A stretch of DNA of 57,226 nt, filler included, from Stramenopiles sp. TOSAG23-6 (GCA_900128565.1; 27 parts of 27 records of this genome joined end to end with filler, not necessarily neighbours in it); one strand, 5' to 3'; positions 3,534-54,640 are shown, counted from the first letter of the whole stretch. Notes: generated by a model not told the origin, from the sequence alone. Translations and numbers: made by a program.

Positions 3534-3687
3534 NNNNNNNNNNNNNNNNNNNNNNNNNNNNNNNNNNNNNNNNNNNNTTAATTAATTAANNNNNNNNNNN
3601 NNNNNNNNNNNNNNNNNNNNNNNNNNNNNNNNNGTACGAAATTTTGTACCTAACGATTTTTTTTTGAAATATTTTTCCAAAATACAT

Positions 3688-4691
3688 GACATTCCTAGAA
3701 CTTTTCCAGAATTGGCTTTTTTTCATTCCGATGATTTTCCAGAAGCCGAAGCTTTGCAAAATGTGCTTGGAGCATGTATCTTTTATTTTTTTTTTAAACA
3801 AAAAAATCGAATTTATTTTTTTTTGTTTTTATAAAAATTTTGTACCTAACAAATTTTTTTAGTTTTTTTTGAAATATTTTTCCAAAATACATATGCCTGT
3901 TATAGACCGGATATCGGATATGTCCAAGGAATGTCATATTTAGCAGCAATGTTTCTATTATATATGTACGTTTTTACCATTCATTTCAAATTTTAACCCT
4001 ATTCGTATTATATTGTTACAACATTGTATTATTATTATTATTTTCTTTTTAAATTCACTACATATTTTTTTGACTTCAAATGTATTCAAAAAATACCTAA
4101 TCAAACAATCAAAATGGTTAAATATTTTCATACAATATATGGATTCTTATAGTGCATTTCAATGTATGATCAATCTTTTATCAGGTCCTTTCTATTTAGC
4201 TTTTTATCGTCTTGAAAAATGTTTGTTTCCATAACCCTAACCCTACATTCATTTTTATTTTATAGAAAATTTTGTACCTAACGAATTTTTACTAAAATTG
4301 TTTTTTATTCACAATACATGTAAAATGAAAAAGTATTTAAACGTTTATGAGAAACTACTTCAAATTGAGTTACCTCAATTAGAAAAACATTTTAAAACTA
4401 TTGGAATTACAAATGAAATGTATCTGTTAGAATGGGTGTATGTGTCTCAACCCTAACCCTAATTTTAAAAAAAAATCCGTAAAAAACATTTTGAACCTAA
4501 CAATTTTTTGTCAACCAAAAATTTATTTTTTTTCTCACAATACAGGCTAACATTATTTACAAAAGCTTTGCCTCTGACTGTGGCGTCTCGCGTTTGGGAT
4601 TCTTATTTATGTATGCAGGGTTCAGAAAGTGAATTATTTTTGTATAAAGTTTCGATTGGGATATGTAAAATTTTTAGAGATCAATTATTAT
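3688..4691 (+). CDS. TBC-domain Rab GTPase-activating protein, partial; exons 3688-3775, 3893-3965, 4141-4220, 4320-4437, 4546-4691
   Basis: Spliced product DIPRTFP...[30 protein letters not shown]...EWVLTLF...RVWD has the DxxR and YxQ TBC catalytic motifs; exon phases are consistent. Confidence 0.9.
3776..3892 (+). mobile_element. GT-AT intron, Introner-like family copy
   Basis: GCAT|GTATC...TGTACCTAAC...CCAAAATACAT|ATGCC; removal gives LGAYACYRP. Confidence 0.8.
3966..4140 (+). other. GT-AT intron (divergent)
   Basis: TATAT|GTACG...TACCTAAT...CAATATAT|GGAT; removal gives LLYMDSY. Confidence 0.8.
4221..4319 (+). mobile_element. GT-AT intron, Introner-like family copy
   Basis: AAAT|GTTTG...GTACCTAAC...CACAATACAT|GTAAA; restores frame; no AG after the branch site. 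Confidence 0.8.
4438..4545 (+). other. Canonical GT-AG intron of the same family
   Basis: GGGT|GTATG...ACCTAAC...CACAATACAG|GCTA; removal gives EWVLTLF. Confidence 0.85.
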
Positions 4692-4900
4692 GTATGTTTT
4701 ATTTTTTTTTTTAACAAAAAAATCGATTTTTTTTTTTATAAAANNNNNNNNNNNNNNNNNNNNNNNNNNNNNNNNNNNNNNNNNNNNTTAATTAATTAAN
4801 NNNNNNNNNNNNNNNNNNNNNNNNNNNNNNNNNNNNNNNNNNNTTCGTACGAAATTTTGTACCTAATGATTTTTTTTTGAAATATTTTTCCAAAATACAT

Positions 4901-5063
4901 CCTCGACATAGAACATGCAGAAGTTGGTAAAGAATTACAAGTCGAGATTAATGATTTTGGACAGAAAATAACTAGGGTTTCTTGCAGTATCAGTGATTTC
5001 CCGTTTCAAAGAGCAAAGTTGCAAAGAGCTCGTTCAAAAACCTCTTCTAATGTATCATCATAA
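4901..5063 (+). CDS. Last exon of a GcvT/aminomethyltransferase-family protein (tentative)
   Basis: LDIEHAEVGKELQVEI...FPF resembles the GcvT C-terminal barrel; follows an intron ending AATACAT. Confidence 0.5.
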
Positions 5064-5087
5064 TTCGTGGTGAATCGTACTATTCAA

Positions 5088-5161
5088 TTATTCCATATCT
5101 ATACTACGAAACGTTATGAATAATTATTCCATATCTATACTACGAAACGTTATGAATAATT
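5088..5161. repeat. 36-bp tandem duplication in 3' UTR
   Basis: TTATTCCATATCTATACTACGAAACGTTATGAATAA twice. Confidence 0.85.
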
Positions 5162-5291: not shown

Positions 5292-5894
5292 TTAAATCAT
5301 TTTTTGACTTTCTCTCCATGTGACGCTTTCAAGATAAATTTGTAGAATTCCTGCTGCTACAGCAAAACAAGCTAGCTCGCATCCTCCTTTGATAGAATCG
5401 TTTATTACAATAATAGCAACAAAAGATAACGTATTTTGGAAAAATATTTGAATAAGAAATCGTTAGGTACAAAATTTCGTACGAAAAACAAAATCGAATT
5501 TGAAAAAAAAAATAAAACATACACGGTAGAAAAAACTTCGCTTTTCCCCTACACCAAATCCGTGAAATTCCCCCACATTGATGTATTGTGAAAAAATATT
5601 TTTTTTTTTATTTCGTTAGGTACAAAATTTAGTACGAAAAAAAAATTAGATAAAAAATTGAAAAAAATAAAACATACATGTACTGTGAAAAAATATTCTT
5701 TTTTTTTTTCCGTAAAAAAAATCGTTAGGTACAAAAAATTTCATCGTAAAAAACATGAAAATTTTGAAATTGAAAAAGTACATATCCATAACATAATATT
5801 AGGTTTGGGAGACAAAGTAGAACAAATGTAAAGTTATAATTTTTCGATAATGCTTCAGTAAGAGAAACATCATGGAGTTTGTTTTGTTCCTTAA
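5292..5894 (-). CDS. 3' part of a multi-pass membrane protein; exons 5894-5782, 5580-5523, 5428-5292
   Basis: Splicing gives a continuous hydrophobic ORF ...LILCYGY|QCGGISRIW...FFLP|LSFVAIIV...ESQKMI*. Confidence 0.7.
5429..5522 (-). mobile_element. GT-GT intron, Introner-like family copy
   Basis: ACCGT|GTATG...TTCGTACGAAATTTTGTACCTAAC...CCAAAATACGT|TATC. Confidence 0.75.
5581..5781 (-). mobile_element. Two adjacent GT-AT family copies (5781-5678 and 5677-5581) with no exon between them
   Basis: Each has a donor, GTACCTAAC and a TACAT end; flanking exons are in frame only if both are removed. Confidence 0.75.
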
Positions 5895-8469: not shown

Positions 8470-9484
8470 GCCCAGCTAGCTTACACAACATTAAAGCAAT
8501 CTCTGGTAATGGAACATCATCATTTATAACATACCCAAATTCACCAAATATCCAAGCCATAGTTTTTATCAGTTTGTCAGGCAAACCTTCTTTTTCAGTA
8601 AGCTCAATTAATGCATCGACAGCATCATAGCGCATTTCCTCATCTTCATCTTCATCGTCGTCAGAACTACTACTAAACCCTTGACGTTCTCTTGCTGTAA
8701 GCATTTGGTTTCGTGCTTTTGCTTGATATTTCTTTGCTAACGTACATAGATCCCGCACTATTTCATTATGACCAAGGCGAACCGCAATCATGTATTGTAC
8801 AATAATATTGTACAATTCGAAATGTGTCAAAAAAAAAAATTACCCATGATACCCATGAATCAATGAAATGTCGTACGTAACGAAATGACATGTAATGAAA
8901 ATGTACATTAATGGAGTATCATTTTCTTCATTTGTAAGATTCATATCAGTCTCATATTGTATTAAGTATTGGACAATTGTATAATTATTATGCAATGATG
9001 CTGTTGTGGCTGGTGTATCTGCACCACCTCCACTTGAACCAGCACCATGACTTTTCTTTGCTACGTTTGGATTGGCTCCATTTGATAATAAATACTGAGC
9101 AACATCACAAGATCCATTTTTTATAGGCAAATATGTCAAAAGAAGACCTATTTGTTAGGGATAAGAATCAAAATGCATATTTGAAATATAATATATAAAG
9201 AATACAAGATATACTTTTTTTTTTCAAAAGTAAAATTTTTTTTTTGATTTTTTTTGATTTTTTTTTGATTTTTTTTTGATTGATTTAAAAAAAAAATATA
9301 TATACGTGTAGTTTTAATAATGAAATCGTACATGTCGACAAGCATTCCATAAAGGTGTTGAGCCGTACTTGTTTTGTGTATTGATTAACAATGATTTTTT
9401 GAGTTTTCCATTACAGTGCTTTAAAATATGTTTGATGATTGACAGTTGATTATTAGATGCGGCATAATGAAGAATCGTATCACC
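8470..9484 (-). CDS. Ankyrin-repeat protein followed by an AP-4 epsilon adaptin-like segment, partial; exons 9484-9332, 9115-8907, 8789-8470
   Basis: GDTILHYAA, GSTPLWNACRH|GSCDVAQYLL, DTPLM|IAVRLGH ankyrin consensus; C-terminal LP...WIFGEFG...LCKLA. Confidence 0.8.
8790..8906 (-). other. GT-AT intron (divergent)
   Basis: TTAAT|GTACA...CAATACAT|GATT; removal gives ankyrin TPLMIAVRLG. Confidence 0.85.
9116..9331 (-). other. GT-AT intron (divergent, 216 nt)
   Basis: GACAT|GTACG...CCCTAAC...AAAAAT|GGA; removal gives ankyrin TPLWNACRHGSCD. Confidence 0.85.
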
Positions 9485-10930: not shown

Positions 10931-11108
10931 CCGGTAAAAAAAAAAATCGAATATTTTTTTTTATAGTAAATTTTGTACCTAACAAACAATTTTAGATTTT
11001 TTTTTTTTGAAATTTTTTTCCAAAATATTTATTTCTTTTCATACGAAATGTTGTACCTAACAAACAAATTTAGATTTTTTTTTTTTGAAATATTTTTCCA
11101 AAATACAT

Positions 11109-11815
11109 GATCTACAAAGAACAATTGAACGTCATATTACAAATTAAAATATATGATATTTTGGATTCAACAAACTTTCCGTATGACAATCAAAACAATT
11201 CGATTACTATTGATCAACAATTGAGAAAACTTCAAGAGACGAATAGTTTGAATTCATCGTGGTCGAAAGTGGCTGTGTATCATGTATGTGAATGATTTTT
11301 TTTTTTTTTAAGTTTTTTTCATACGAAATTTTGTACCTAACAAATTTTTAAAAAGTTTTGAANTTTTTTTTTCACAATACATTTATTCGATTTAAGTACA
11401 AATGGGAACCAAACAATCGGTCTTGCAACTCTTGCCGAACCAAGTTATAATGGTTTGTGTACAAAAAGCAATGCCTCTATTACCCGGGTGGTAAAATCAA
11501 ATCCAAGTTGGGTGACTTTTGCCCATGAAATTGGACATAATCTTGGAGGTCGTCACGTATGTTTTTACTATTAGGGTTAGGGTTGTTTTATAATTTTTTT
11601 TTTTTTTTTTTTTGGTAAAAAAATTTTGTACCTAAGAAAAATATTTTTTTTTTGAAAATAAATATTTTTCCACAATTTATGTATGGGATATCGGGCCAGG
11701 GGAACAAGCTGGTATTGGTGGAATAATGGATTATGGAGATAAATTACAACTTGATTATTCATATCAATTTCACCCTTCGAATAAAAAATATGTCTGTGGA
11801 GTTTTGAAAAAAAGA
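11109..11815 (+). CDS. Reprolysin-like (M12B) zinc metallopeptidase, partial; exons 11109-11283, 11383-11556, 11681-~11815
   Basis: HEIGHNLGGRH zinc motif and GGIMDY Met-turn come into frame after intron removal. Confidence 0.85.
11284..11382 (+). mobile_element. GT-AT intron, Introner-like family copy
   Basis: TCAT|GTATG...TACGAAATTTTGTACCTAAC...CACAATACAT|TTA. Confidence 0.8.
11557..11680 (+). other. GT-AT intron containing TTAGGGTTAGGG
   Basis: CAC|GTATG...GTACCTAAG...CACAATTTAT|GTATGG; links the zinc motif to the Met-turn exon. Confidence 0.75.
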
Positions 11816-12865
11816 TTTTTTTTTTTTTTTTTTTTTTTTTTAGTAAATTTTTTACCTAAAAATTTTTTTTAAAAATTTTGAAAAATTTTTTAAAAAAAAA
11901 TTTTTTTTTTTTTTTTTTTTTTTTGTAGTAAATTTTGTTCCTAACAATTTTTTTAGAAAATTTTGAAATATTTTTCAAAAAATATGTNNNNNNNNNNNNN
12001 NNNNNNNNNNNNNNNNNNNNNNNNNNNNNNNTTAATTAATTAANNNNNNNNNNNNNNNNNNNNNNNNNNNNNNNNNNNNNNNNNNNNAAAAAAATATTTT
12101 TTTTTTTTTTTCGTAAAAAAAAACAATTCGTTAGGTATGAAATTTTCTTATAAAAAAAAATAGGTAAACAAATCAATTTTGAAAAAAAATATTTTTTTTT
12201 TTTCATAAAACAATTCGTTAGGTATGAAATTTTCTTATAAAAATAAATAGGTAAACAAATCAATTTTGAAAAAAAATATTTTTTTTTTTTTTTCGTAAAA
12301 AAAAACAATTCGTTAGGTATGAAATTTTCTTATAAAAAAAAATAGGTAAACAAATCAATTTTGAAAATGTACAAGATGTTTGATGTGAAATAGAAAGCTT
12401 TAACAATTCTTTCTGTGAGACTAAAACAAGAGAGTGTCCATGTAATTTTACAAAGATATTTTATATTCAATTTTTCTGTTAGGTACAAAATTTGGTACAA
12501 AAAAAAATAAATTCGAAATTGGTAAAAATTCAATTTTGAAAATGTACATTTGGACATTTTATGTTTTTTTGTAATTTCTGATTTTGACGTTTTTGTTCTA
12601 ATAATTTATTCTTACGATGAATTTCATCATTCCGGCGAATAAGACTAACAATATGCTCATTTTCCTTTTTGTCATTTATAATAGCTTCACTGCGGAATTC
12701 GCGAAGTTTTGAACTGAACTGTCAAAACATATTTCAAAAATTTGATTTTTTTTGTTAGGTACAAAATGTTGTATGTTTTGGGTTAGGGTTTTACAAAAAA
12801 ATGTAGGTAAAAAAAACGTACAGACCATTGATCCAATCCCCTTGTTCAAGGGTAGTACATACATC

Positions 12866-18111: not shown

Positions 18112-19215
18112 TAAAATCAATGTCACAAACTCGAAAAGCAAAATTAAACATGATGCTTGGTATCTTACGTCATCACCTGACACATGTTGTAGTACGTGGT
18201 TGGAATTCGTGGAAGTATATGGTAAATATTGAAAAGGCAGCTGAAGAAAGAAAACGACATGCTTTAGCAATAGCTTGTAAACTTCTAATGTCAACACATA
18301 CTAGAGCTGTACACATAGGCTGGAATAAATGGGGAATTGTATGTCGTGAATTACAACATGCGGATGACGTTGCTAATTTACGAGGTAAAGCAAAAGGAAG
18401 CGATGCAGTCAACAGATTTAGACTTGCTGGAAAGAGTCTAAAATCAATGTCACAAACTCGAAAAGCTAAACTAAACATGATGCTTGGTATCTTACGTCAT
18501 CATCTTACGCATGTTATAGTACGTGGTTGGAATTCGTGGAAGTATATGGTAAATATTGCAAAAGCAGCGGAGGAAAGAAAACGACACGCTTTAGCAATAG
18601 CTTGTAAACTTCTAATGTCAACACATGCTAGAGCTGTACACATAGGCTGGAATAAATGGGGAATTGTATGCCGTGAATTACAACATGCGGATGACGTTGC
18701 TAATTTACGAGGTAAAGCAAAAGGAAGCGATGCAGTCAACAGATTTAGACTTGCTGGAAAGAGTCTAAAATCAATGTCACAAACTCGAAAAGCTAAACTA
18801 AACATGATGCTTGGTATCTTACGTCATCATCTTACGCATGTTATAGTACGTGGTTGGAATTCGTGGAAGTATATGGTAAATATTCAAAAGGCAGCTGAAG
18901 AAAGAAAACAACACGCTTTAGCTATAGCTTGTAAACTTCTAATGTCAACACATGCTAGAGCAGTTCACATAGGCTACAATAAATGGGGAATTGTATGTCG
19001 TGATTTGCAACATGCCGAAGAAGTTGCTAGTTTGCGAGGTAAAGCAAAAGGAAGTGATGCAGTCAATAGATTTAAACTTGCTGGAAAGAGTCTAAAATCA
19101 ATGTCACAGACTCGAAAAGCAAAATTAAACATGATGCTTGGTATCTTACGTCATCATCTTACACATGTTGTAGTACGTGGTTGGAATTCGTGGAAGTATA
19201 TGGTAAATATTGAAA
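18112..19215 (+). CDS. Tandem-repeat protein (327-bp/109-aa unit, more than 3 copies) with Sfi1-like W-x-x-W motifs
   Basis: Near-identical units starting at 18120, 18447, 18774, 19101; differences mostly synonymous. Confidence 0.75.
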
Positions 19216-19315: not shown

Positions 19316-20324
19316 GGTGCAAAGCATAGAGTGCAAAATGCAAAACATCGAGCGAGTGACTTTGAACATAATATTGTTGATGGTGCAAAGCATGGTGTTA
19401 GTAATATCGAGCAAAGGGTTACTTCACTTAGTCATGATATTGGCAAAAATGTGAAACATGGATCATCTTCTTTTGCTCATAAATCTGGAATTGTCCTTGA
19501 AAATGCTGAGAAAAAAATGAATCTTGTTAAAACTGGTTTTAAAACTGGTTTAAACCATATGGTGTCTCATGTACTACCAAGTACTGAAAACATCAGAACG
19601 TTTACAAAAAGGAAACTTCGTGAGAGAATTGCTGAACGAAAACGCGTTGAGTTATTAGCTGCTGCAACGGAAAAGGCTGCATTAAAAAAAGCGAAACAAA
19701 GAAAAAAGGAAAAAGCTCGAAATACATTTTCACCATCAAGACGATCTAACCCTAACCCTAACCCTAAAAATCGTTCTCAGGATGATACGACCTCTAGTTC
19801 TCTTGATTTTTCAGATATTGCAGTTGTGAAAATGAGAATGGGTAAACAAAAAGACGAAGCACAAGAAAGATTACGTGTTTTAGAATCTGCACGAAATGTA
19901 TGTTTTATTTTTATTTTTTTAAATTTGATTTTTTGTATGAATTTTTTTTTTTTTTTTTGGTTTTTTATAAAAATTTTGTACCTAATAAATTTTTTTTTTC
20001 GTAAAAAAATTTTGAAATATTTTTCCAAAATAAATGGTCTTCTAGAAATGCAAGCTTTACGCAAAAGAGGTCATATATTTGACAGACAAGACACTCTTGA
20101 TCATGATGATGATGATGATGATGATGATGTGTCTTCTTTGTATACTATGTATGTTTTACTTTTTTTTTTTTACAAAAAAATCAATTGTTTTTTTCGTACG
20201 AAATTTTGTACCTAACGAATTTTTTTTTGAAATATTTTTCCAAAATTCATACAAAATTATGGTAAAACATTTGTAGAAACATTTCAATCTTTTGTAATGG
20301 CAGGTGAAAATTCATGTTTAGGAT
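19316..20324 (+). CDS. Hypothetical protein, partial; GT-AT introns at 19898-20035 and 20149-20250
   Basis: Junctions ARN|GLL and YT-I-QNYG keep the frame; third donor at 20325. Confidence 0.65.
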
Positions 20325-21831: not shown

Positions 21832-22783
21832 GTCTGTTCGTTTGTGGGATGGTGCATCAGAGAAATGTCTTCGAATATTGCAACATCCTGATATACCATG
21901 TGTTGCTTGGCACCCTTCAAGGCCTTCATTTTGTCTGACAGGTTGTTGTGATTCAAAATTAAGAGTATGGGATTTAAGTCTTGATTTGCGTTCTTCTACT
22001 GAAAGTCGTGTAGGGTTAGGGTTAGGGTCTGAGAAGATTTGTGGTAGTGAAAATCCAAGAAAAGAATTATGTAAAGTTGTCGATTGGACATCAACACCAA
22101 GCCCTGTAACTGCAGTTACATATAGTTTAGATGGAGATATGGTTGTTGCAGGATTATTTAATGGTTTATGCATTTTTTTCACAACGAAAACGACGACAAA
22201 TCTTAATAGTGTTTGTTTTTCTTACATAACTTTTTTTTTTTTTTACCAAATTTGTTTTTCTACCGAATTTTGTACTTAACAATTGTTCTGGAAAAAAAAA
22301 ATATATATATTTTTACAATACATTTTAAAGGTAAAAGAACATCTATTGTACATAGAAATAGAAACTTACCTCCACGAATGCAGTTTCTTAGAAAAGTTGT
22401 TTGTCGTAATCGACATGGCGCGATGGCTCAAGGAAAAAAAGTGACTGGTATGGAATTCGATGATAGTGTATGTTTTTTTCATTCATCATGAATATTGTAG
22501 CTAGATTTTTTTTTTTAAATTCTATATATGTATACAGTTTCATTATGGATTTCAAATGTATGTATTTGTTTTGTATCACATTTCATATACTAAACAAGAA
22601 AAAAAAATTAAAATATTTTTTTGTTTACATGGAAATAGACTTTTGGTAACAACAAGCGACTCCCGAATGCGAATTATAAAAATCCAAAAACTACAAAATT
22701 CTTCAGGTAATTCAAATGATAATAGACTTAGTTTTATAATCAGTGATAAACTAAAAGGCCTTGAAAATAAAGATACTGGATAT
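21832..22783 (+). CDS. WDR44-like WD40 protein, partial; exons 21832-22210, 22324-22467, 22631-22783
   Basis: VRLWD, CVAWHP, DSKLRVWD, CRNRHG..GKKVTGMEF, RLLVTTSDSRMRI; introns end in CAT. Confidence 0.8.
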
Positions 22784-25381: not shown

Positions 25382-26390
25382 GGTACTTACAATGATAATG
25401 AGGTAACATTCTCTTCAAAAGATTTTGCAAGTCAAGACACCTTAATGTTTTGTAAAAACGATATTTCTAATGAGGATTGTCATTTATTTAAAACATCCCT
25501 TGATGTAATTGAAAACATTTTAAGTATGATGAATAAATACGAAGTTGGCTTGAGTGATGCCACTCTTGGTCATTTACTAAAACAAGCAACTACAAATTGC
25601 ATTGAAGATGTTGTTCATCAAAGAAAACACATTGAAGATGTTGTTCAACAAAGAAAACAATTGGGTATAAAAAGTAAGCGAAAATATAATAAGTATAGTG
25701 CGTTACATGGAGGTGCATCTCGTCATGTATGTTTTATTTTTTTTCAAATTCGATGTTTTTTTCTTACGAAATTTTGTACCTAACGGTTTTTTTTTGAAAT
25801 ATTTTTACAAACACATGGTTTGGCTCCAGAATATTCAGCGATAAGTTTTGCGCAAGGTCTGAAACTTTTAGATACAGTTGAATCATTTGTCCTTGTACGT
25901 TTTTAAGCCTAACCCTAATTTCAAAAATATTTTTTTTTCGTACGAAATTTTGTACCTAACAAATTTCAAATTTTGAAATATATTTTGACATTTCATGGAC
26001 CTGGTAAACCTCAACAATTTCTTCCTAGCCAAATTGCGTATTGGGCAAATCGTATTCAAAGATCTCGCAATGAAATCAACAATAAAATGAAAACAATTTC
26101 ATTACTTACAAAAAAAAAAAAAAAAATTGAAAATATTTCAGCAAAACCAAAAGATATTGTCAATTTAAAATTGCTTGACAATTTATTAAAGTCAAAAGAT
26201 ACGAAACCATTACATTTACATAAACCAAAAGATACGAAACCATTGCATGTACCATTACATTTCCATAAACCAAAAGACATTAAACCATTACATGGTCTTG
26301 ATCTTATTATAACTCGATCATTATCACTTTCACCTCGAACGAGAGAAATCATTCGTATGAGTAAAACACTACAAAAACCAAATAGTATAT
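25382..26390 (+). CDS. Hypothetical protein, partial; GT-AT introns at 25727-25816 and 25895-25996
   Basis: Exons of 345, 78 and 394 nt join in frame (SRH|GLA, FVL|GPG). Confidence 0.65.
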
Positions 26391-30422: not shown

Positions 30423-32290
30423 TTATAGAGTTAAGAATTCATCACCAGTGTTCCTACTAGGAAGATGTGTGGTATATTTCTGATTAATACGAGGTTGGCG
30501 CATACTAGTACCACATCGTCTTAATAATTCAAAATAGTGTTCCCTATCGATAGAAATATTTTCATCATTAAATTCACTATCACTCAACATCGGTGCATAA
30601 CTACGACTTTGCTCAGTGCTTTGCGAGACATCGTCACTAATTTTGGTCTCTTTTTGAAAGTTAGAGTCAGGGTTATTGTTGATCTCAGACTCTATTGGAT
30701 ACTCCATTTGATCTAATTGTCGCCTCATTGAGCGTCTATTTTGACCACGACGTCTAATATCCGGATCTAATTTGGAAGTGGTTTCATTAGAAGTTTTACT
30801 AGAAAATCTCAATGCTGGAGGAAATTGTGGTGCTTTTAATTTTGTTGGTGGTATAATGACATTTCTCGATTTGTATCTTAATTCTAATTCATGCCTTTGT
30901 TTTGAAAATGAAACTTGTCCTTCGACAGGTCGAATATGTATTGTGAAAAATTTTAAAATAAAAAAAAACATTAGACACACAATTTCGTATCAAAACAAAA
31001 ATAGGTAAAAAATTCGTGTTGAACACATACATACTTGAGGCGTGCTTGCTTCCTAGCCTTCATATTTTCAAAGTTTTCGTGTTTAGCAAGATACTTATTC
31101 TTTTCTATCCAACGGGCTCTTGCATTACGTAGTTGATTTCCTGCTTTTGAATTACCAATCCCTAAACTATCTATTTCTATTTTAGACACGAAATCGTCAT
31201 CCATTGTTTTCTGGATCTTCTGTTTCGTTTTCTCTTTCTGGTATCTTTGCGATTTCCCTTTTTTTCTATTTCTGTTATGATACAAATATGCGTGTTTACC
31301 CATTTTCTTTTTACCTCTACCTCTATTAGATGTCTTTGACTTCACATTTGAACCTTTTCGAATCCTGACTTCTTTCAATGATGTTTTTAGAGTAGATGTC
31401 ACAGGATGCTGAGACCCAAGACGCTCAAGTGCAATTGCAATACCTCTTTGATATGCAGCAGTTGCTTCAAAATAGCGTCTTAAATGCTCCAATGACGCCC
31501 CTTCATTATGGCAAGCAATACACAATACGGCAACACGCCCACGAACAGCTTCAATCTCAGATAATTCTGCATCTACCCCAGTTGTTTTATCATCATAATC
31601 ATATGCCGAAACTTCTTTTTGTAACAGTTGTACAGCCTGACGAGCATGAATTACAGCCTCGCTATGATGTCCCAAAAGAGATAAAATTGCACACATATTT
31701 AAGTGTGTATCTCCAGGGGATAGAGGATTATTGATTGAGCTTTCAATTTTTTCTGCCATTGAAAGATATTCCAAAGCTCTCTCCAAGAAGTAATTTGGAG
31801 TACTCATTTGATGCTTCCTCTGACGAAAATGTTTCATTTTTTTAGTTGTTGCTATGTTACTTTCATGATTGTATCGAGATCGAAGTAAACAGGCAAAATT
31901 ATTATATGTTACAGCAAGTTGTCTTTCATTGTGTGTGTGAAATATTTCAGCCTTTTCAAGGAAACCAAAAGCCTGGTCAAATAAACGAATACTAGCACAG
32001 CCACTTTCTATATCATTTTGACAACTTATACCCAGTTCATTGCACAACTTTCCTGCTTTCGTACAAGCGTCGCGGAATTCTTGACTATCAGAGCCAAAGA
32101 TTCTTTTGAGTATAATCACTTCATTTTCTCGACAGACTAATGAGCCTTCTTTGTCGCCAGATGCAATACAAAGCTTAGCATTATTTCTAACTTCTAAAAG
32201 TTGAGCCATGGCTTCATTCTTTTCTGAATTATTCGAGTCGCTGTCATTGGCTATCTCATCAAGTTTTCCATCTCCACTCTGTTCGCTCAT
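30423..32290 (-). CDS. TPR-repeat protein; exons 32290-31031 and 30935-30423, GT-AT intron at 31030-30936
   Basis: TYNNFAC, THLNMCAILS, IACHNEG TPR motifs; RLKY|IRPV junction joins the two ORFs exactly. Confidence 0.8.
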
Positions 32291-38131: not shown

Positions 38132-38454
38132 AAATTATTTTTTTTGTACCATGTATTTGTATGAAATGTAAAAAAATAAACAAAAAAATAAACAAAAAAA
38201 TAAAAAATAAAAATTTATGTTTTTTTTGTGTAAAATCCTAGTAAGACTACATCAAGTTTCAAGTTGAACTGCACTTTCTTTAAAAGTCTCGTTCAAGGCN
38301 NNNNNNNNNNNNNNNNNNNNNNNNNNNNNNNNNNNNNNNNNNNTTAATTAATTAANNNNNNNNNNNNNNNNNNNNNNNNNNNNNNNNNNNNNNNNNNNNT
38401 TTGTACCTAACAAATTTTAGTTTTTTTTTTTTGAAATATTTTTCCAAAATACAT

Positions 38455-39889: not shown

Positions 39890-41416
39890 ATGGCAACATT
39901 TTGGAAGTCTTATGAAAAGCATTGGTGTAAATATTGCAAGACATGGATGCCTGGTAACAAGAGTTCTATTATAAATCATGAGAAAGGAAAAAGGCACAAA
40001 GAGGCTGTGTTGAATCATCGCATGCAGTCTCGGAAGAAGAATGCTGAGAAACTCGCGAAAAAAAAAGCTGCTGATAAGATGATAAGAGATCTAAATCGTG
40101 CAGCGGAGGCGCAAATGGATAAAGACATGTCAGGTGGACTATTGAATAATCGTAGTGGTTTTGCGCGGCCTTCCTCAGAACGTCAGCAACACGATACTCG
40201 TCCGGAACAAAAGACTCAGGGCAAAGCACCCAAGAAAAAGGAAAAGCCGAAACAGAGTGTCCCGGGTCCATATTGGCCTCGCCCAAAAGCTCCTCCCAAA
40301 GAAGAGCGTGATCTCGAAACATATCCTCCAACTGACAATCGTTTCAAAGGTCACTTTATGGTCCATGGAGTCACTTATCTTAGTTCTGCTGTTTTTGAAA
40401 GAAAATTGTGCATTGGGGTCGAGGTAGAAGTATGGGATCCAAGTAGTAGCATTTGGAGAATTGGAATAATAAATGGTGTTAAGTTAGTCAATAGTAATGA
40501 AAAAAATAGTGTAACTCCAGCCATCATTAGGAGATACAGAGTGAATACGTCGATACAAGATCATGATATTTGTGATGATGAGTTATCCAGTGACCCTAAC
40601 CCTATTTGTGATGATCAGTTAAAAAAGTTATCCACTGAAAATGTTTATATATTCACTGCCATTGAAGGATTGCGTCTAGTCCCTCCTGGACCTCCAAGTT
40701 TAAGTTTTCATGTACAATCAAATATAGATCACAAAGAAAGTTATATGAAAAAAGAAGGTAATGAGATTCACTCAGATAATGAGATTGACTCAGATAATAG
40801 TAAAAGCAATAGTAAAAAACGACGAAAAAAATCTCGTTGGGGGCAGAATAACCCTATCCCTAATAACCCAAGTAAGAATAAAGTTGAGTTGAATGAAGAG
40901 GATAATAATAAAGAAAGTATTGCTACTGAGAAGACTAACGCTAGTATGTCTGAAATTTTTGGTTTTGGAAATTGGGAAGTTATGAAGAAAATACCAAAAA
41001 AGACAGACAAAATAAAACCCACAAAAGAAATTCATAAATATGCTTTTGCGAATGAAGCAGAGGCAAAAGCATATTATAAACATCAAAAACAAACTGCTAA
41101 AGGATACGATTTTGAAGGTGACAATCCAGATGATCATGAAGGAGTTGTTGATGCATTATCAGCAGCGAATCCACATGTATGTTTTATTTTTTTCAATTTT
41201 TTGTCTAAATTTTTTTCGTACGAAATTTTGTACCTAACAAATTTTAGGTTTTTTTTTTCAAAATATTTTTCCAAAATACATGGTGGTGCGTATCGAGGTG
41301 TTCAAATTTGTGATAAAGCTCAAACGAGAGCAGAAATGATGACAACAAAGCAAGACGATGGAACAAAAGTTAAATTTAAAAAGAAGCGGAAGAAAAAACG
41401 AAAAAAAATGGGTTAA
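39890..41416 (+). CDS. WBP4/FBP21-like U1-type zinc-finger spliceosomal protein; GT-AT intron at 41177-41281
   Basis: M..FWKS..KHWCKYCKTW...HEKGKRHK and basic FKKKRKK tail; spliced NPH|GGAYRG. Confidence 0.8.
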   Translation: MATFWKSYEKHWCKYCKTWMPGNKSSIINHEKGKRHKEAVLNHRMQSRKKNAEKLAKKKAADKMIRDLNRAAEAQMDKDMSGGLLNNRSGFARPSSERQQHDTRPEQKTQGKAPKKKEKPKQSVPGPYWPRPKAPPKEERDLETYPPTDNRFKGHFMVHGVTYLSSAVFERKLCIGVEVEVWDPSSSIWRIGIINGVKLVNSNEKNSVTPAIIRRYRVNTSIQDHDICDDELSSDPNPICDDQLKKLSTENVYIFTAIEGLRLVPPGPPSLSFHVQSNIDHKESYMKKEGNEIHSDNEIDSDNSKSNSKKRRKKSRWGQNNPIPNNPSKNKVELNEEDNNKESIATEKTNASMSEIFGFGNWEVMKKIPKKTDKIKPTKEIHKYAFANEAEAKAYYKHQKQTAKGYDFEGDNPDDHEGVVDALSAANPHVCFIFFNFLSKFFSYEILYLTNFRFFFSKYFSKIHGGAYRGVQICDKAQTRAEMMTTKQDDGTKVKFKKKRKKKRKKMG

Positions 41417-41481: not shown

Positions 41482-43040
41482 TTATTTATTGTACATGTTT
41501 TTAGTATCCATTACTATCCCATCCATATCATCCACAGATGCTGGCATGTAAGACACTCCAGCAAGAGGTACCCAACATCCTTGTTCTATACTATACTTAG
41601 GATCGCCCAAACTCTGTAAATGCTTAGGGTTAGGGTCATTTTCAAGTTTAGGATCGCCAAACTCCTGGTGTTGCTTTGGGTTATTTTGAAGTCGAATTGC
41701 TAAAATCCGAAATAGCAAACTTGGGCTATGAACATTTTCACTATCATGTACTTCAATATGAATATGAGGTTCTGGTGCGAAACCGACATCTCCAGAAAGA
41801 CATAGAATTTCACCAGATTTTACCAAATCACCCATTTTAAATTTAATAGAGCCTTTTTTAATGTGGATGTAGAGTGAAGAAATATTTTGAAAAAAATGAT
41901 TTTTTTTGTTAGGTATTATTCTACAGTAGGGTTTAGGGTTCATTTCGAATTTTTCAGATTTTCAATGACAAAAAAAAAACATTATTATGTCAATAAAAAC
42001 AATAAGTGGATTAGGGTTGGGGTTAAAGTGGATAACATACACATAATCTACAACCACAGATGTGGTACAATTTCGTTTTGATTCATCTGGAACAGGTATC
42101 GGCATACCATCCTTATTTAGAAACACTTGAAGTGAAATAGAATTCCAATTACACAAATTAGAACAATGAATGCCAGTCACTTCATTTCGATGGGCTATAT
42201 CAGTGATGATACCATCACCAATGGCAGTCACGGGGGTGTCAATATCACACCGAAGGTCAAACGCATGTATAGTGAAAACAATTAGAAATCAAAAAATTGT
42301 TAGGTGAAAAAAAAACTATACAATACAAATACAACAGAGTTGAAAATAATCCTCTCAGATATTTGAAAAACACAATGAATTTGAAATGTATGATGGAAAC
42401 GTACATGAAATGACTCAGGGAAAAAATGGGTAAGTCTACCCCCATTGCCTTGGGTACAGAGAAAAGGACCAGTACCACCTAAAGGAAAATTCTGAAAAAA
42501 AGGAATGACTTTTTGTTTTTCCCCTTCTNTATCAGGATGTTGAATAAGGGGAAACGCGAGTTTTGAAGTCTCCATTTTTGACCATATTGTACGGGCAACG
42601 TCAAAACGGGTTTTCGGTGGTATGATCAGTATAAATGTAATACAGTCCACAATATATGTACCTTTGACACTTGTTCTATGTAAATCTGAAGTCTTACCTA
42701 TTTCCAATTTCTTCTTATTCCCATCAAGAAAAGTAAGTGTATTCACTACTGTAGCAGAGGCATTATCACTTGATTCGTCACATTGACCTGGTGTTACAGA
42801 CACATATACTACTTGTTCTACATCTGCCACATTTGAAACTGATAAAATATGACTACCGTGTGAAATATCTACAGTGTCGTCAATCAAAAAGGCCATTTCT
42901 ATCTTATCATATTCTTCCTCATCACAATGCTCTTCACTCCAACTTATCACTTGTTCATCAACAGCAGAAACGCCAACTAACCACGGCGTTTTTGAATCAG
43001 CAATATGACAACCAGGACAACCACAACACAAGCAATTCAT
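41482..43040 (-). CDS. M23-family zinc metallopeptidase; exons 43040-42405, 42264-42041, 41866-41482; GT-AT introns at 42404-42265 and 42040-41867
   Basis: TQG...TH...H|AFD, TPV.A..DG, Y-V-HI, GD.V..G, SG..G...PHIH motifs restored by splicing. Confidence 0.88.
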
Positions 43041-48321: not shown

Positions 48322-51314
48322 ATGTCTCTATGGAAATCTGAAATTAGTGAGAAAAAAATATCGGAAAGTAAAGATACCTTAAAGCTGCGGTGTTCAAAGT
48401 GTGAATTTCCAGCGGTAAAAGGTTGCCGAAATTGTGGTTTATATGGATTACTTTATTGTTCAGCCTGTCTGTCAGACCATTCTACACATCCTCGATTTAG
48501 TACTCATAAACCATGTACAATAATAGAGTTGAATACATATAATAAAGCGCAAAAGGAGTGGGCTGATAAATATAGGAAACGGCAAAAACAGAAAGTACTA
48601 GAAGAATCTGAGAAAAGAGACATTATAAAGAAAAAACAGTTGCAACTATCAAGGACACAACATAGACGCCGTGTTCAGACTTCAGAAATCTCTCATCATT
48701 TCAAAAATTCAACACATAGTACTTCAAAAATAGTTATCTTTAAGTTTGCTTCAGGATCTCGCTATGAAGGTGAAATACTTGATAAAGCTCTTTCTGGTGG
48801 GCAAAACACACCAAATGGATACGGTGAGCTATTTGCCTCAGAAACTTCGCATCCACCAGGTCATCTACAATACGAAGGAATGTGGCGTCAAGGTTTACGT
48901 TGGGGTAAAGGGACACGTTTTTGGCCTGATGGAGGTAGATGGGAAGGTAGTTATAAACAAGATCAAATGCATGGATCCGGTAGATATTATAAGTTTACGA
49001 AGGGTGATCCAGTTCCTATAGTTGATTGGTGGTACTATAGATATAATAGAAGAGTTGCCACTTGGCAAGACCTTGTATGTGGAACCCGTATAAGTGTAGT
49101 GGGCAGGAAAGGTTTACCACCCAGATGTGCTACTCTCGTAGCTCGTGATAGTACTAAACATCACCACAGAGTAAAGTATGATAATGGAGTTTATGCTGCT
49201 TGGCATGACCTTGGATCCCTAAATTTTACAGTAATTCATGATCAACCATTAGTAGATATGCCAGAAAATATGAAAATGATTCCTCATAAAAAAAATACTC
49301 CTTTAAGAGAAATATCTCGTATTGATAGGTTTAATGATATAATCTCTTCTCTGGGGAGTAAATCATCACTAAGAAGTAATATTGTTAAGGATATCGCACA
49401 ACGCAAAAGTCACATACAAAATGCATTAAAAATGATTAAAAAGGTTGGTGCTCGAAAACAGAAGAAACTTCGAGAATCCATTGACATGCATAATACTGCT
49501 ATACATAAACTACAAAAAAGTTTAAATAAGTTATTGAAAGATGTTTCCATGAGCTATGGTATTACCGATACATGTCTCAGACACCCATCTATATCATCTG
49601 AGTGGCCGCTTAACACAGATAATGCACAATGGGGTCACTTGAGAGAAGCGCCATTCATGCAAAGTAATAATCTCTCTGCACCTTCGAAGTCTTCATTTAT
49701 ATTCAAATCTCGGCGTAGTATTGAAGAAGATCTAAGGCTTGCCGAATTAATGTCTCCGAATAGTGGAGAAAATTCTCGACCAGAAACAGCACAGGAAAAA
49801 CTTGTAAAACATCATCAAGCTAGAATGTCGAATATAGCGAAATTATCTGAAAGGAAATTACGTGCAAATACATCTCACAAAAGAAGGATGCAGATGAAGA
49901 GTCTGGAAGAAAGATGTAGAAAATCATCAAAACGAAATCTACCTAATTTAACTCCTCTCACACTTAAACTATTAAAACGAGCTGATCCTGCAACTGGTGG
50001 TGTTATAAGAGACGCACTTCGTAAAATTGGTGATCCTCGACTAGAATATTTTGAAAATGATGATAGGAAAAAGGTTCATTGCGATGATAATTGTCAGGAT
50101 CTATATGACGGCGAGGATCAATATCTAGACGGCGAGGATGCTCATGATTACGGCGAGGATGAATATGATGAACTCAGTGATGGTGAGGATACATATGATG
50201 ATGGTGAAGATAAATATGATGATGGTGAAGATGATGCTCATGATAGCGGGATTATTAAAAAGAATAGTTTGTCAAACCAAGTTAATGACTATGACCATAA
50301 TATGAAGAATAACATTGAAAAAAGTAAAGTAACAAATGATATTCAGATTAGTAGAGATAGTTTTACTGTACAAAAACCTGTAAATAAGGGACAGGAAGAA
50401 GTAAAAGCACCGAAATGGATTACTAAGAATAAAGCTACGACTAACCCCATCTTAGGCAATAATAAGGTAAAAATGTTTTTTCCTAATAATGACAGTACGC
50501 CAAAGATGAGTGAAGCTTTGGTTAGCGGTGCGAATAATAATGTAGAGAAGGTAATACTAAGTAAAAGTGATAAAACTACAACTAATCCAAGAAAAAGTTT
50601 AATCGAAGCTTCCAATAGTAAAAGTGATAAAACTACAACTAATCCAAGCAAAAGTTTAATCGAAGCTTCCAATAGTACCGATGCTCGTAAGATTTCAGAG
50701 CTCATTATTCATAATAAAAACATGGATAATAAGAATCCTGTTAGAGTTGATAATAAAATTAGGAAATCGTCAACCTTTGGAAGTGGAATCCGCACACTTC
50801 ATTACTACAAGTCTAAATGGAGGTTACAACCTCATTTTGGACTAAAAACGCCTTTATTGAAACTTCCAAATAAGGCGCATACATTAGTAAAGGATATTCT
50901 AAATGTAACAAGTACTCGAATAGCAGTTATGGCAGGGGGGGGGGGGCAACTAAAAATCAAAAAAGCGTTGTGGGTAGTTCAATATATGGAAAACAGACAA
51001 AAGATCGAGTTAAATGTTCATCACTTGTGGATGGTGATGCATTTAGATCATTTAGACATCTACGTAGATTTCATAGCAGGCGTATAAGAGGTCTAAAGAA
51101 TGCATTAGATGTTGCGAATGAAATAAAAGTAGATGTGGAATATAAAGAAGAAAATGACACTGAAGAAATTTCATTTGAGGGAGAAAAAAATACAGCAAAG
51201 CAAAAAATTAAGTATCAAGACGATGGAACTGAAATAAGTTGTCAAAATATTACAGTTAGTACTCCAAGAAAACGCATTGTTCAAACTATTAGAGACGCTT
51301 TTGAAAAGTGGTAA
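48322..51314 (+). CDS. B-box zinc finger plus MORN-repeat protein; probable frameshift at a G12 run (50935-50946)
   Basis: C..C...C..C...YC..C...H....H; YEGMWRQGLRWGKG, WEGSYKQDQMHGSG. Confidence 0.75.
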
Positions 51315-51354
51315 TTTCCACAAAATTAAGTTTTTTAATAAATAAATTATTGTT

Positions 51355-52845
51355 TCATAATTCTAAATGTTTTTTCGTAAGACTCTGCAATTTCTTCATG
51401 AAATATAAATGTAAAGTCTTAAATAGTCGTTTTTGTTGTACACGAAACAAAATTGCTGTTCGTTGATTATCCGAAACTTCCACCACTTCCTTCAAAATGT
51501 TTTGAAGTAAAGTTTCATCGGTGCTTTCATCATTTACATATGAAGAGTTAATTTTCACATCTAGTAAATTTGTGATCATCTGTAAAGCATCGACGTTGTT
51601 TTTGGTGCTATATTCACCTTTAAAAATTTTACTTTGCCCTGAACTATCGTTCAGTAATTGTAAAGCAGTTTCAACAGGTAATTTCATTAATCGAGCATGT
51701 ACTGTGATTTTTTTTTACGGAAAATAAATCGTTAGGTATAAAATTTGGTACGAAAAAAAAATAAATTTGAAATTCAAAAAAATAAAACAAACATGAGACT
51801 CAATGGATTGTACTTCTCTATCCAAATTATTCAATTTGCCATCCATGAATTTTTTTAATTCCAAAGATTGAATAATTAATCTAGGCATAATCCTCATTTG
51901 GCGAAATATTGGGAACAATGACTTGTCTGGCATTGGCATCTCCAGCTCTATCGTATCATACGAATTATCTTCAAGTACAAAACCATGGTATAAAAGATTA
52001 TGTTGGTTTGAAGAACCATAGTTTTCAAAAAGCTGGTCACCACTCTTCACAGACCAAATTGACTTCGTTATTGTTTCTGTTTTCCCGTTTGTATTTGTTA
52101 TTTTTTCTGTCCTGTGTACTTTCGTGGGGTGATTTTTGTTATTGACCATATCAAGCATAGGTAAAAAACTACGGTGGCGACCATTAATCCAAATTGTTCT
52201 AGAATCGACAAGTGCATTGAGCCACAAATAAATGTCATAATTCCAACTATTTCTTGGCTTTTCTCCAAACAAATGTGAATTTTCGGCAATAATATTATTT
52301 AATTGATTCCATTCATTTTTTGTCTTCTGCTTGTACTCTTTAGATAACTTATCCACATCTGTTCCTCGAAGCTCCTTTAGTTCATCTTCGTCCCAAAATA
52401 TAGGTATGTTAAAACTTGCAGGGAGTGTGTCAATATATGGTTTCCAGAACGATGGATCAGAATCAGGTCGATTTAATTCATAATACATAAAAAACATCAG
52501 AATGTGTGCAACGTCTAGCTTGTATTTCTGCTGTAACTCACGGAAGTCTTCACCGACGTCAGAGGCATAGATTGAATCTTCGTTGATTATTAGATGCCAA
52601 GGAAGGCGCAGATAGTCTTCACCTATAGCAATATCGAATCGAGCTCGTGTACCCATGCGAAAACCTGGGATTTCAGCCAGTTCAATTTTACACCACTCCT
52701 TCCCATTATTTGAGTCAATCCAATCGTTGAAATTCTTGGCAAGGGACGATGGAGTTCCTGAACCAACGTACGTCGTTGCAATCAAGCCAATAGCCGTAAC
52801 AGAAGGCGAAAGTAACAGAAACAATACATAAACAAGCAAATACAT
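51355..52845 (-). CDS. SET-domain protein-lysine methyltransferase (Rubisco LSMT/SETD3-like); exons 52845-51793 and 51696-51355, GT-AT intron at 51792-51697
   Basis: SFWKPYIDTLP, PIFW...EL..L.GT, SR, PMLDMVN, GDQLFENYG...LL.HGF. Confidence 0.88.
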
Positions 52846-53101
52846 TATTTAGTTTAAAGATGAACAGCGAAGTGATATTAAATTACCCTAATTTAATTGA
52901 AAGAAAGTTACCTTCAATCGAACAATTATTATTCCGAATCTAAATCTCAAATAAATCTATCCGCGAACTCCGCGAATCTTGAAAACCTGAAAAAATGGGA
53001 GAAAACGAAAAATAGAAAATTTGAAAATTAACATCAGATTATTTATTCTCAAAAATCCATTTTATTGTGAGTAAAAATAAATAAATATAGCTCATAATAA
53101 A

Positions 53102-54640
53102 ATGGACGAAGGCCTTCCTTTGGAACTTGTTGATTTTTTGAATGAAGCATGGACTCCGTTTCACGCAGTCGCACGTGTTGCTCGTGAGTTGCGTAACGCA
53201 GGCTTTGTCGAGTTGGATGAAAGAAAAGACTGGTCCCAGGATATCAAGAAAGGAGGCAGATACTTCTTCACACGGAATCACTCTTCACTTGTTTCTTTTG
53301 CAGTAGGTTCAAAATTCGAACCAGGAAATGGTTTTATAACTATTGGAACTCACACAGATAGCCCGTGTCCTAAATTAAAACCTGTTAGCAAACTAAATAA
53401 AAGTAAGCACTTAATGCTTGGTGTGCAATGTTACGGTGGAGGTCTCTGGACTACTTGGTTTGATCGTGATCTTACCATTGCTGGTCGCGTAGTTGTTCGC
53501 CGGCCTGGTGGTAATTTTTCTCACGAGCTTGTGAAGGTATCTAGACCAATTTGTCGGATTCCAATGCTTGCGGTGCATTTAGCCCGAGGAACAGGTACTG
53601 ATTTTAAGTTAAACACAGAAACAGATTTTGCACCTGTACTTGCCACCGAACTCAAGACTGCACTTGACAACGCAGATGGTGATTTCTCTGAGTCAAAGGG
53701 GGGAAGTTTGACACATCATCATTTACTTTTAAAACTAATAGGAGATGAGCTAAAGTGTAATGTCAACGATATAGCTGATTTCGAACTTCAATTGTGCGAT
53801 ACTCAACCCTCTGTCATTGGTGGGGCTCTGAAGGAATTTATATTCAGTGGTCGCTTAGATAATTTAGCATCATGCTTTATGGCAATGCGCTCTCTTGTTG
53901 ACAGCACTAGTGATATGGACCTTGTAAATGAAACTTCTGTAAGAATGATTTGTATGTTCGATAACGAAGAGGTAGGTAGTTCTAGTGCTCACGGTGCATG
54001 TGCTCCTATAATTATGGATACAATTCGTCGAGTCACCGGTGTTTTTTCGCAGGAAACTGGGGTCAATGAGCGAGCCGTACAATCATCATTCCTTATTAGT
54101 TGTGATATGGCTCATGCGGTGCATCCTAATTATTCATCAAAACATGAGTCAAATCATACGCCTCAGTTTCATAGAGGAATGGTCATAAAATACAATGCAA
54201 ATCAAAGATATGCGACCACAGCTGTAACGGCATTTCTGTTTAAAGAGCTAGGTGCCATGGCTGAAGGAGGGGGTTGCCCAGTTCAAGAATTTGTCGTGAG
54301 AAATGATTGTGCCTGTGGAAGCACTATTGGGCCAATCATATCTGGTAGAACAGGACTGCGCACTGTAGACGTTGGAGCGCCGCAGGTCTGTTTTGATTCA
54401 AATTATCATTTTAAATTTTTTTCTTCTACTTTGACAAATTCATTCTCACAAAAAAAAAAACGTATATATATTCACACAAAGAAGTGGTCAATGCATAGTT
54501 GTAGAGAAGTAATGGGCACAGGTGATGTCATTCATGGTGTTCGCCATTTCCGGTCATGTTTTAAAAATTTCTCACTTCTCAACAAAAAAATTCAAGTAGA
54601 TGCAATACCTGGGATTTCATTCTGTCAGCCTTTACCATAA
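53102..54640 (+). CDS. DNPEP: Aspartyl aminopeptidase (M18); canonical GT-AG intron at 54386-54484
   Basis: TPFHAV, HTDSP, WFDRDL, RLDNL, FDNEEVGS, DMAHAVHPNY, GSTIGP, GAPQ|WSMHS. Confidence 0.95.
   Translation: MDEGLPLELVDFLNEAWTPFHAVARVARELRNAGFVELDERKDWSQDIKKGGRYFFTRNHSSLVSFAVGSKFEPGNGFITIGTHTDSPCPKLKPVSKLNKSKHLMLGVQCYGGGLWTTWFDRDLTIAGRVVVRRPGGNFSHELVKVSRPICRIPMLAVHLARGTGTDFKLNTETDFAPVLATELKTALDNADGDFSESKGGSLTHHHLLLKLIGDELKCNVNDIADFELQLCDTQPSVIGGALKEFIFSGRLDNLASCFMAMRSLVDSTSDMDLVNETSVRMICMFDNEEVGSSSAHGACAPIIMDTIRRVTGVFSQETGVNERAVQSSFLISCDMAHAVHPNYSSKHESNHTPQFHRGMVIKYNANQRYATTAVTAFLFKELGAMAEGGGCPVQEFVVRNDCACGSTIGPIISGRTGLRTVDVGAPQVCFDSNYHFKFFSSTLTNSFSQKKKRIYIHTKKWSMHSCREVMGTGDVIHGVRHFRSCFKNFSLLNKKIQVDAIPGISFCQPLP

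Follow-up and report, generated by a model that had tools for sequence, protein, structure and literature searches.

GT-AT introns and an introner-like repeat family in genome contigs of a probable marine stramenopile

Genes in the stretch of DNA analysed here, 57,226 bases assigned to Stramenopiles sp. TOSAG23-6 (GCA_900128565.1) and called the window below, are interrupted by introns that begin with GT and mostly end with AT. We consider it probable that these are genuine introns, which an AT-rich eukaryote removes from its RNA by a U2-type-like splicing that mostly uses a CAT acceptor, and that they include an introner-like family. The window consists of 27 contigs joined by N44-TTAATTAATTAA-N44 linkers (for example, at 3534-3633 and 38300-38399), and adjoining pieces are not necessarily adjacent in the genome. 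Twenty-four pieces of 1,100-1,112 base pairs come first, slowly falling in size from 1112 to 1100, followed by three of about 9.37 kilobases (kb); their G+C content ranges from 23 to 44%.

Between 3776 and 54484 we placed 25 complete introns. All 25 begin with GT, and the last dinucleotide is AT in 21, AG in three (4438-4545, 12714-12821 and 54386-54484) and GT in one (5429-5522). An earlier note, made from the sequence alone, had counted 24 introns with two AG ends; its claims that every intron starts with GT and that AT ends prevail in the window are borne out. Donors follow the consensus GTATGTTTT, 21 of the 25 having G at +5, and the 3' consensus of the 25 introns is ACAATACAT, with C at position -3 in 20. 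The preceding exon ends in T in 23 cases and in AT in 16, and the following exon starts with G in 15. Sixteen of the 25 introns are in phase 0, after NAT codons. The introns are as follows, with lengths in nucleotides (nt) and a slash at each junction; repeat copies are those of the family described further below.

Intron A: 3776-3892 (+), 117 nt, cat/GTATCT..ATACAT/atg, TBC gene; full-length repeat copy; restores LGA-Y-ACY, and the next exon is TBC profile 81-103.
Intron B: 3966-4140 (+), 175 nt, tat/GTACGT..ATATAT/gga, TBC gene; FLLY-M-DSY; repeat profile silent at E<0.06.
Intron C: 4221-4319 (+), 99 nt, aat/GTTTGT..ATACAT/gta, TBC gene; the following exon is TBC profile 134-170.
Intron D: 4438-4545 (+), 108 nt, ggt/GTATGT..ATACAG/gct, TBC gene; repeat-family 3' end but AG; the exons on either side are TBC profile 134-170 and 172-216.
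Intron F: 5678-5781 (-), 104 nt, tat/GTACTT..GTACAT; adjoins intron G without an exon; joint removal of F and G (201 nt) leaves 49 and 83 codons open in a restored frame.
Intron G: 5581-5677 (-), 97 nt, GTATGT..ATACAT/caa; full-length repeat copy.
Intron H: 5429-5522 (-), 94 nt, cgt/GTATGT..ATACGT/tat; the sole GT-GT intron; CGT ends both the exon and the intron.
Intron ank2: 8790-8906 (-), 117 nt, aat/GTACAT..ATACAT/gat; ankyrin gene, TPL-M-IAV.
Intron ank1: 9116-9331 (-), 216 nt, cat/GTACGA..AAAAAT/gga; ankyrin gene, ACRH/GSCD; AAATAG 32 nt before the end is unused, and its use would give a stop.
Intron K: 11284-11382 (+), 99 nt, cat/GTATGT..ATACAT/tta.
Intron L: 11557-11680 (+), 124 nt, cac/GTATGT..ATTTAT/gta; after HEIGHNLGGRH in a reprolysin-like protease; exon end not T; the upstream exon is Reprolysin_5 up to profile 157.
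Intron N: 12440-12547 (-), 108 nt, aat/GTACAT..TTACAT/gga.
Intron M: 12714-12821 (-), 108 nt, tct/GTACGT..GTTCAG/ttc; AG type; an AG 5 nt upstream is skipped.
Intron R: 19898-20035 (+), 138 nt, aaat/GTATGT..ATAAAT/ggt.
Intron S: 20149-20250 (+), 102 nt, tat/GTATGT..ATTCAT/aca; top-scoring repeat copy.
Intron V: 22211-22323 (+), 113 nt, agt/GTTTGT..ATACAT/ttt; exon end GT, which excludes AT-AC.
Intron W: 22468-22630 (+), 163 nt, agt/GTATGT..TTACAT/gga, DDS/GNRLL; not detected as a repeat copy.
Intron X: 25727-25816 (+), 90 nt, cat/GTATGT..ACACAT/ggt.
Intron Y: 25895-25996 (+), 102 nt, ctt/GTACGT..TTTCAT/gga; exon end TT, which excludes AT-AC.
Intron AA: 30936-31030 (-), 95 nt, tat/GTATGT..ATACAT/att; TPR gene; 430 and 170 open codons.
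Intron AC: 41177-41281 (+), 105 nt, acat/GTATGT..ATACAT/ggt; full-length copy; in frame and stop-free.
Intron M23-2: 41867-42040 (-), 174 nt, tgt/GTATGT..CTACAT/cca; M23 peptidase gene; the next exon is Peptidase_M23 profile 54-92.
Intron M23-1: 42265-42404 (-), 140 nt, cat/GTACGT..ATACAT/gcg; FH/AFD; M23 peptidase gene.
Intron AE: 51697-51792 (-), 96 nt, GAGTCTCAT/GTTTGT...CACAGTACAT/GCTCG; AT type; missing from a poly(A) RNA contig.
Intron AF: 54386-54484 (+), 99 nt, cag/GTCTGT..AAGAAG/tgg; ordinary GT-AG; M18 aminopeptidase gene.

An enumeration of all donor and acceptor pairs (32,306 combinations) was uninformative, and consensus-anchored tests were used instead, with the abutting introns at 5581-5781 taken as one unit (24 units in total). 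With the consensus boundaries, each of the 24 units is flanked on either side by 25 or more open codons. When the acceptor is moved by -2, -1, +1 or +2, the frame is restored in only 5, 7, 4 and 6 units, respectively. Retention would bring an in-frame stop into 20 of the 24. Where 6.95 occurrences of the 3' word AAATACAT are expected, 19 are present, a count that none of 100 shuffles reaches. Eleven additional 3' ends of the repeat, for which no donor could be placed, terminate in AT (nine), GT (one) and TT (one, an internal duplicate at 11030); ten of them are followed by at least 36 open codons and the internal duplicate by 25.

Protein families provide a second control on the junctions. Of the five TBC exons, three have a match of their own to Pfam PF00566 (profile positions 81-103, 134-170 and 172-216), and the other two gave none; from position 103 to 134, the profile has 30 positions and the spliced product 29 residues. 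These matches thus show that the junctions between the exons fit to about one residue. In the ankyrin gene, the repeat length expected from the ankyrin consensus is preserved across the junctions TPLWNACRH/GSCDVAQYLLSNGANPN and TPL-M-IAVRLGHNEIV, and both the ankyrin and the M23 anchors were judged by eye against consensus motifs. Protein searches returned no near-identical spliced product for the 48-residue middle exon between introns V and W, and for the 430-residue exon before intron AA the best match was a protein only 37% identical; both searches are uninformative either way.

A branch motif of the CTAAY, TTAAC, CTGAC or ATAAC type was found by regular expression in 21 of the 25 introns, 33-50 nt from the intron end in 20 of them and 17 nt from it in one, in agreement with the CTAAC-type branch site and spacing given by the earlier note; the remaining four introns have looser motifs, seen by eye. 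A T-rich stretch follows the motif. Together with the GTNNGT donor, it looks U2-type, as had also been claimed, and not U12-type. Seven of the 19 motif-bearing introns that end in AT or GT have an unused AG between the motif and the used end, and in introns A, F, K, AC and AE the skipped AGs lie at least 10 nt past the branch A. The acceptor rule of 'first AG' thus does not hold for them. A search of the window against Rfam gave no matches.

The motif CCTAAC is also a permutation of the telomere-like repeat CCCTAA. Ten telomere-like runs, (CCCTAA)2 or its complement, are present at 4233, 4449, 11571, 19748, 22011, 29182, 30366, 32457, 41624 and 43181. Several of them lie in the 5' part of introns, and two are within open frames, reading NPNPNP and GLGLG.

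Many of the introns belong to one repeat family, which the earlier note had missed. The introns of 3634-4900 are near copies of one another. A profile built from eight full copies, with a median identity of 79%, was run with nhmmer over the window and gave 45 matches at E<0.06, 36 of them at E<1e-3, in TBC, zf-U1, TPR and other genes. The unit is approximately 95-120 nt long and consists of GTATGTTTTATTTTTT, a variable stretch, the 12-nt palindrome TTTCGTACGAAA, TTTTGTACCTAAC, a T-rich stretch and GAAATATTTTTCCAAAATACAT. The palindrome directly precedes the branch motif, and its core TTCGTACGAA is found at eight sites (4844, 5476, 5942, 20193, 25937, 26562, 28779 and 41215). Every copy that can be placed in a gene is in the sense orientation. 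Two copies abut without an exon at 5581-5781 (-), where joint removal of 201 nt restores the frame, and at 10936-11108 (+) and 12120-12349 (-) the repeat has two or three tandem copies of its inner part within a single intron. Several contigs begin or end exactly at the palindrome, and 12 of the 52 internal contig ends fall inside a repeat copy, which explains why the assembly is fragmented and means that short contigs over-sample the family; 38 of the 45 matches lie in the 26.6 kb of 1.1-kb contigs, and seven in the 28.1 kb of large contigs. Scanning of Joint Genome Institute metagenome contigs for a 22-nt core of the repeat gave no matches. Nineteen loci related to an M18 relative of 64% identity, all at most 54% identical, showed no repeat, a result that is uninformative on relatives.

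Five AT-ending introns are unseen by the repeat profile at E<0.06 (3966-4140, 8790-8906, 9116-9331, 22468-22630 and 42265-42404, that is, B, ank2, ank1, W and M23-1), so the AT end is not the quirk of one repeat. Within the family, intron D ends in CACAATACAG where its relatives end in CACAATACAT, which shows T and G alternating at the last intron position. Direct repeats across the junctions have a mean length of 3.16 nt against 2.71 nt for permuted pairs, a value reached in 183 of 10,000 permutations, and the excess comes from a few loci, namely cgt/ACGT (H), ag/AG (AF), aaat/AAAT (R) and atatat/ATATAT (B). The direct repeat is mostly shared consensus, and a target-site duplication at the junctions is possible. 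That the AT is merely such a duplication was rejected, as five AT-ending introns follow exons that end in GT, GT, GT, TT and AC.

A read index search found window sequence in DNA runs and, in small shares, in six RNA runs. On the third large contig, we compared the window with assembled contigs (not raw reads) of three RNA runs (X5, X7 and X8) and one seawater DNA run (X2), which made two introns, AE and AF, testable in RNA. In the poly(A) metatranscriptome X7, a 193-nt contig without mismatches, at a depth of 5.9 and with 31 nt on its shorter side, lacks 96 nt; the joint maps to 51696-51791 with a slide of 4 nt and corresponds to intron AE exactly. Here, a CAG 5 nt before the used end is passed over; a cut at this CAG would take out 91 nt and disrupt the frame. 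A second X7 contig skips the 99-nt GT-AG intron AF in the M18 gene. In the DNA run X2, contig record 7 runs through AF, two contigs enter the AE repeat from either side, and no joint is listed at AE or AF among the X2 contigs, from which a rare excised form could have dropped. With the AE segment missing from poly(A) RNA and no joint listed among the DNA contigs, the data speak for removal at the RNA level, which is supported by one contig at one AT-type intron. The RNA runs X5 and X8 cover the contig patchily and bridge no intron, and nothing was concluded from them. Summed over 51612-51923, the depth on the repeat is 1042 in X5, 1617 in X8, 4520 in the DNA run X2 and 6.2 in X7, with flanking exons below 10; the repeat family is very abundant, and in two of the 'RNA' libraries its ratio is near that in DNA.

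Several observations weigh against the explanation given at the outset. The length is divisible by three in 17 of the 24 units (16 of the 25 single introns), an excess that it leaves unexplained. With a junction consensus of (C)AT/G at both ends, the cut can slide and leave the mRNA unchanged, and a leftward slide of at least 1 nt is open to 22 of the 25 introns, one of at least 2 nt to 18. The depth of X5 and X8 on exons is only 0-5, and these libraries hold much unspliced RNA or DNA of the repeat family. The sole RNA joint for an AT-type intron comes from a sample other than the DNA runs, and an allele without the repeat would look the same. In addition, the word 'dominated', which the earlier note had used, may be overstated genome-wide, the short contigs being repeat-enriched. 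Its interpretation, a relaxed or changed recognition of the 3' splice site by the spliceosome of this lineage, is partly supported, by the removal at the RNA level at AE, by the U2-type signals and by the AT ends of introns that the repeat profile does not detect.

Because the preceding exon ends in AT in 16 of the 25 cases, the position of the cut is fixed neither by the sequence nor by the RNA. Register 0 gives 21 GT-AT, three GT-AG and one GT-GT introns, and register -1 gives TG-CA in 17 of the 22 that allow it. Register -2 gives AT-AC in 12 of 18, the others being AT-AA (two), AT-AT, AT-TC, GT-AC and AG-GA. A cut 2 nt to the left (/ATGTATG...ATAC/AT) would turn the same introns into something like the rare U2-dependent AT-AC introns, in which the two terminal bases vary in concert (A with C). 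The 16 exons ending in AT and the 12 AT-AC pairs fit this chemistry, and the RNA joint at AE, with its slide of 4 nt, permits it; we nevertheless find it distinctly improbable, as the register is impossible in seven of the 25 introns, including L, V, W, Y and M23-2, whose exons end in AC, GT, GT, TT and GT, and elsewhere yields the mixture of termini just given. Moreover, the three AG-type introns fix GTNNGT as the host donor, and under AT-AC chemistry this conserved element would leave the donor position so fixed, while introns of one family would be cut in two ways. GT...AT appears to be the most economical register and the sole one fitting all 25 introns. A different kind of doubt concerns the machinery. 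The introns could be removed not by the ordinary spliceosome but by a route that reads paired or repeated ends, as proposed for introns of euglenids, hemistasiids and Amoebophrya. In favour of this, the ACAT that closes the introns is the reverse complement of AT/GT at the donor junction, short direct repeats (mean 3.16 nt) span both junctions, pairing of the two ends is slightly stronger than in shuffled sequences (mean -3.4 against -1.9 kcal/mol), and the introners of Amoebophrya, in the portion of PMC7789003 available, are bordered by 3-5-nt direct repeats and inverted repeats. Such a route is nonetheless unlikely here: the helix consists of just 4-6 AU-rich pairs, z is above -1 in 11 of the 25 introns, the direct repeat is mostly consensus (2.71 nt in permuted pairs), and in nearly all introns the donor is strong and of U2 type and the spacing of the branch motif is fixed, whereas the nonconventional introns of euglenozoans are described, in the accessible text of PMC12621601, as without U1 complementarity. 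With the used end 33-50 nt from the motif, C at -3 in 20 of 25 and the end pairing weak, we favour a spliceosome that accepts both CAU and CAG at a defined spacing from the branch site over a structure-guided route.

Two further explanations dispense with the major spliceosome. The segments could be excised from DNA in an expressed nucleus, in the manner of internal eliminated sequences, or the RNA contig could stem from an insertion-free allele, with no splicing in either case. The repeat looks mobile, with tandem and nested copies, which makes presence/absence alleles likely; the RNA and DNA runs are different samples, the lengths are divisible by three in most units, and a minority excised form could go unseen in contigs, which drop rare variants. 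Against this stand the X2 contigs that enter the AE repeat from both sides and cross AF, with no DNA joint listed, the stops that 20 of the 24 units would put into conserved genes (TBC, ankyrin, M23 and M18), and the same RNA run splicing an ordinary GT-AG intron 2.6 kb away; we therefore see only a slim chance for this account. The last candidate, a set of U12-type introns of the minor spliceosome expanded by the repeat family, is scarcely credible. The branch motif of U12 introns is located roughly 10-26 nt from the 3' end, against 33-50 nt here (20 of 21), and they need C at +5, where 21 of the 25 introns have G. Positions +3 and +4 are variable (AT, AC, TT and CT), no intron starts with GTATCC or has an RTATCCTT donor, and one copy has GTATCT. 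What speaks for it is that GT-AT is a known rare U12 boundary and that one copy starts with GTATCTTTT. According to the part of bioRxiv 10.1101/2020.10.12.336362 available, GT-AT makes up 17% of 1,014 non-canonical U12-type introns of Physarum, and CCTAAC is one base from the CCTT[G/A]AC quoted there.

Taken together, the signals suggest a U2-type-like splicing in which a donor GT(A/T)(T/C)GT, an (A)CCTAAC branch motif and a T-rich stretch would lead to an acceptor 33-50 nt further on. This acceptor would be (A/T)CA followed by T in most introns and by G in a minority, YAG having mostly turned into YAT. A repeat of about 95-120 nt, with its own donor, palindrome, branch motif and ACAT end, would have spread to many genes. 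Judging from the sequence, the major spliceosome probably cuts these introns, presumably at GT...AT and not at a slid register, and the second-step machinery of the lineage would then accept U at the last intron position. We put at about even the chance that in a whole lineage of marine stramenopiles AT has replaced AG in the 3' splice-site rule of the major spliceosome, the last intron position being U instead of G and the G-start donor being kept, and that a burst of ACAT introners then filled the genes with such introns.

The acceptor AG is among the most constant signals of eukaryotic gene expression, and, according to structural work, the G of the acceptor and that of the donor pair with each other in the second splicing step. 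A lineage relying mainly on AT while its donor and branch site stay normal would reveal how much this G-G contact can vary, and would point to co-evolved machinery, such as U2AF35, Prp8, Slu7 or Prp18. If true, a GT-AT majority would be seen here for the first time in any genome, as a natural experiment on how the acceptor is read in the second catalytic step. It would also tie an introner expansion to a non-AG acceptor; surveys based on GY-AG would miss such families, and gene finders that demand AG would break most genes of these organisms. In the literature on marine stramenopiles (MAST), noncanonical or GT-AT introns and introners, we found no description of a GT-AT majority, although supplements may hold intron statistics. 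The word 'intron' is absent from the accessible parts of the MAST papers PMC8163842 and PMC12614181, and in that of PMC5778133 it occurs only in the gene-prediction methods; none of these parts gives intron termini.

What is new here is that an introner-like family combines an AT acceptor with U2-type surroundings that otherwise look canonical. Introners are transposon-like intron families, reported from Micromonas, Aureococcus, Chrysochromulina, dinoflagellates and others, and some of these families bring their own 5' site and take the 3' site from a target-site duplication (bioRxiv 10.1101/2022.06.06.494994, as far as its text was available). The window family resembles them in its many near-identical short introns at unrelated sites, with their own donor, sense orientation and short repeats over the junctions. 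However, the families described in the available portion of that preprint are GY-AG, whereas the copies in the window mostly have an AT 3' end; their inverted terminal repeat is merely about 4-8 nt long, and the GTAT...ATAC ends pair weakly. Amoebophrya, with over 60% non-canonical introns and both direct and inverted border repeats, shares the non-canonical majority, the repeated intron families and the border repeats of a few nt that make the cut ambiguous, but its introns have no clear dinucleotide signature and carry 8-20-nt inverted repeats as hairpins (PMC7789003, in the portion available). In contrast, the window introns have a clear GT-AT signature, a U2-type donor and branch motif, and weak end pairing.

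Among animals, some tunicates (Fritillaria-type) have 95% non-GT/AG introns, linked to a divergent U2AF and to modification of small nuclear RNA (PMC13326754, from the text accessible). As would be the case for the window, theirs is a spliceosomal system, in which the canonical terminal dinucleotides have been replaced genome-wide; the tunicate termini are different and the kingdom is another, and the window introns keep the canonical donor and change the last base only. The introns of euglenids and hemistasiid diplonemids also form a non-canonical majority with complementary ends, but they are characterized, in what was available of PMC12621601, by stable end helices and the lack of a U1-complementary donor, whereas the window has a GTATGT donor and weak helices. 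The rare GT-AT introns of U12 type in Physarum, animals and plants have identical terminal dinucleotides; they represent a fraction of a percent and have RTATCCTT donors, while the donor and the branch distance in the window are not U12-like. Canonical U2-type GT-AG introns share the donor and branch motif with the window introns, of which only three of 25 have the AG end. Ciliate-type internal eliminated sequences differ, as the X2 DNA contigs hold the segments and the joints are seen in poly(A) RNA.

Read in the standard code, long open frames of the window specify eukaryotic proteins (PUF, Serinc, M18 aminopeptidase, MORN, TPR and zf-U1). The M18 gene at 53081-54640 is near-identical, gaps aside, to a EukProt coding sequence labelled GSMAST32, and from this label of the nearest named protein we infer that the host is a MAST-3 marine stramenopile. 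The nearest public M18 model (P0002, 408 amino acids) is without three stretches that are open and conserved in the M18 frame of the window, and its true GT-AG intron has been correctly removed. Public gene models of the host organism seem unreliable; MAST-3 assemblies as published have only 2,694-3,289 genes per approximately 20 Mb (PMC5778133, Table 1, from the part available).

Two loci show smaller irregularities. The MORN frame (934 codons) stops at 51084, and another frame is open over 50874-51311; at 50871-51084, RNA contig record 13 (50871-51064) and DNA contig record 4 (50818-50970) have two gaps each. This break is more likely a small assembly indel or a strain difference than an intron. 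At 18176-18823 (-), in the contig 18112-19215, two near-identical frames of 107 codons lie about 327 nt apart and represent a tandem duplication.

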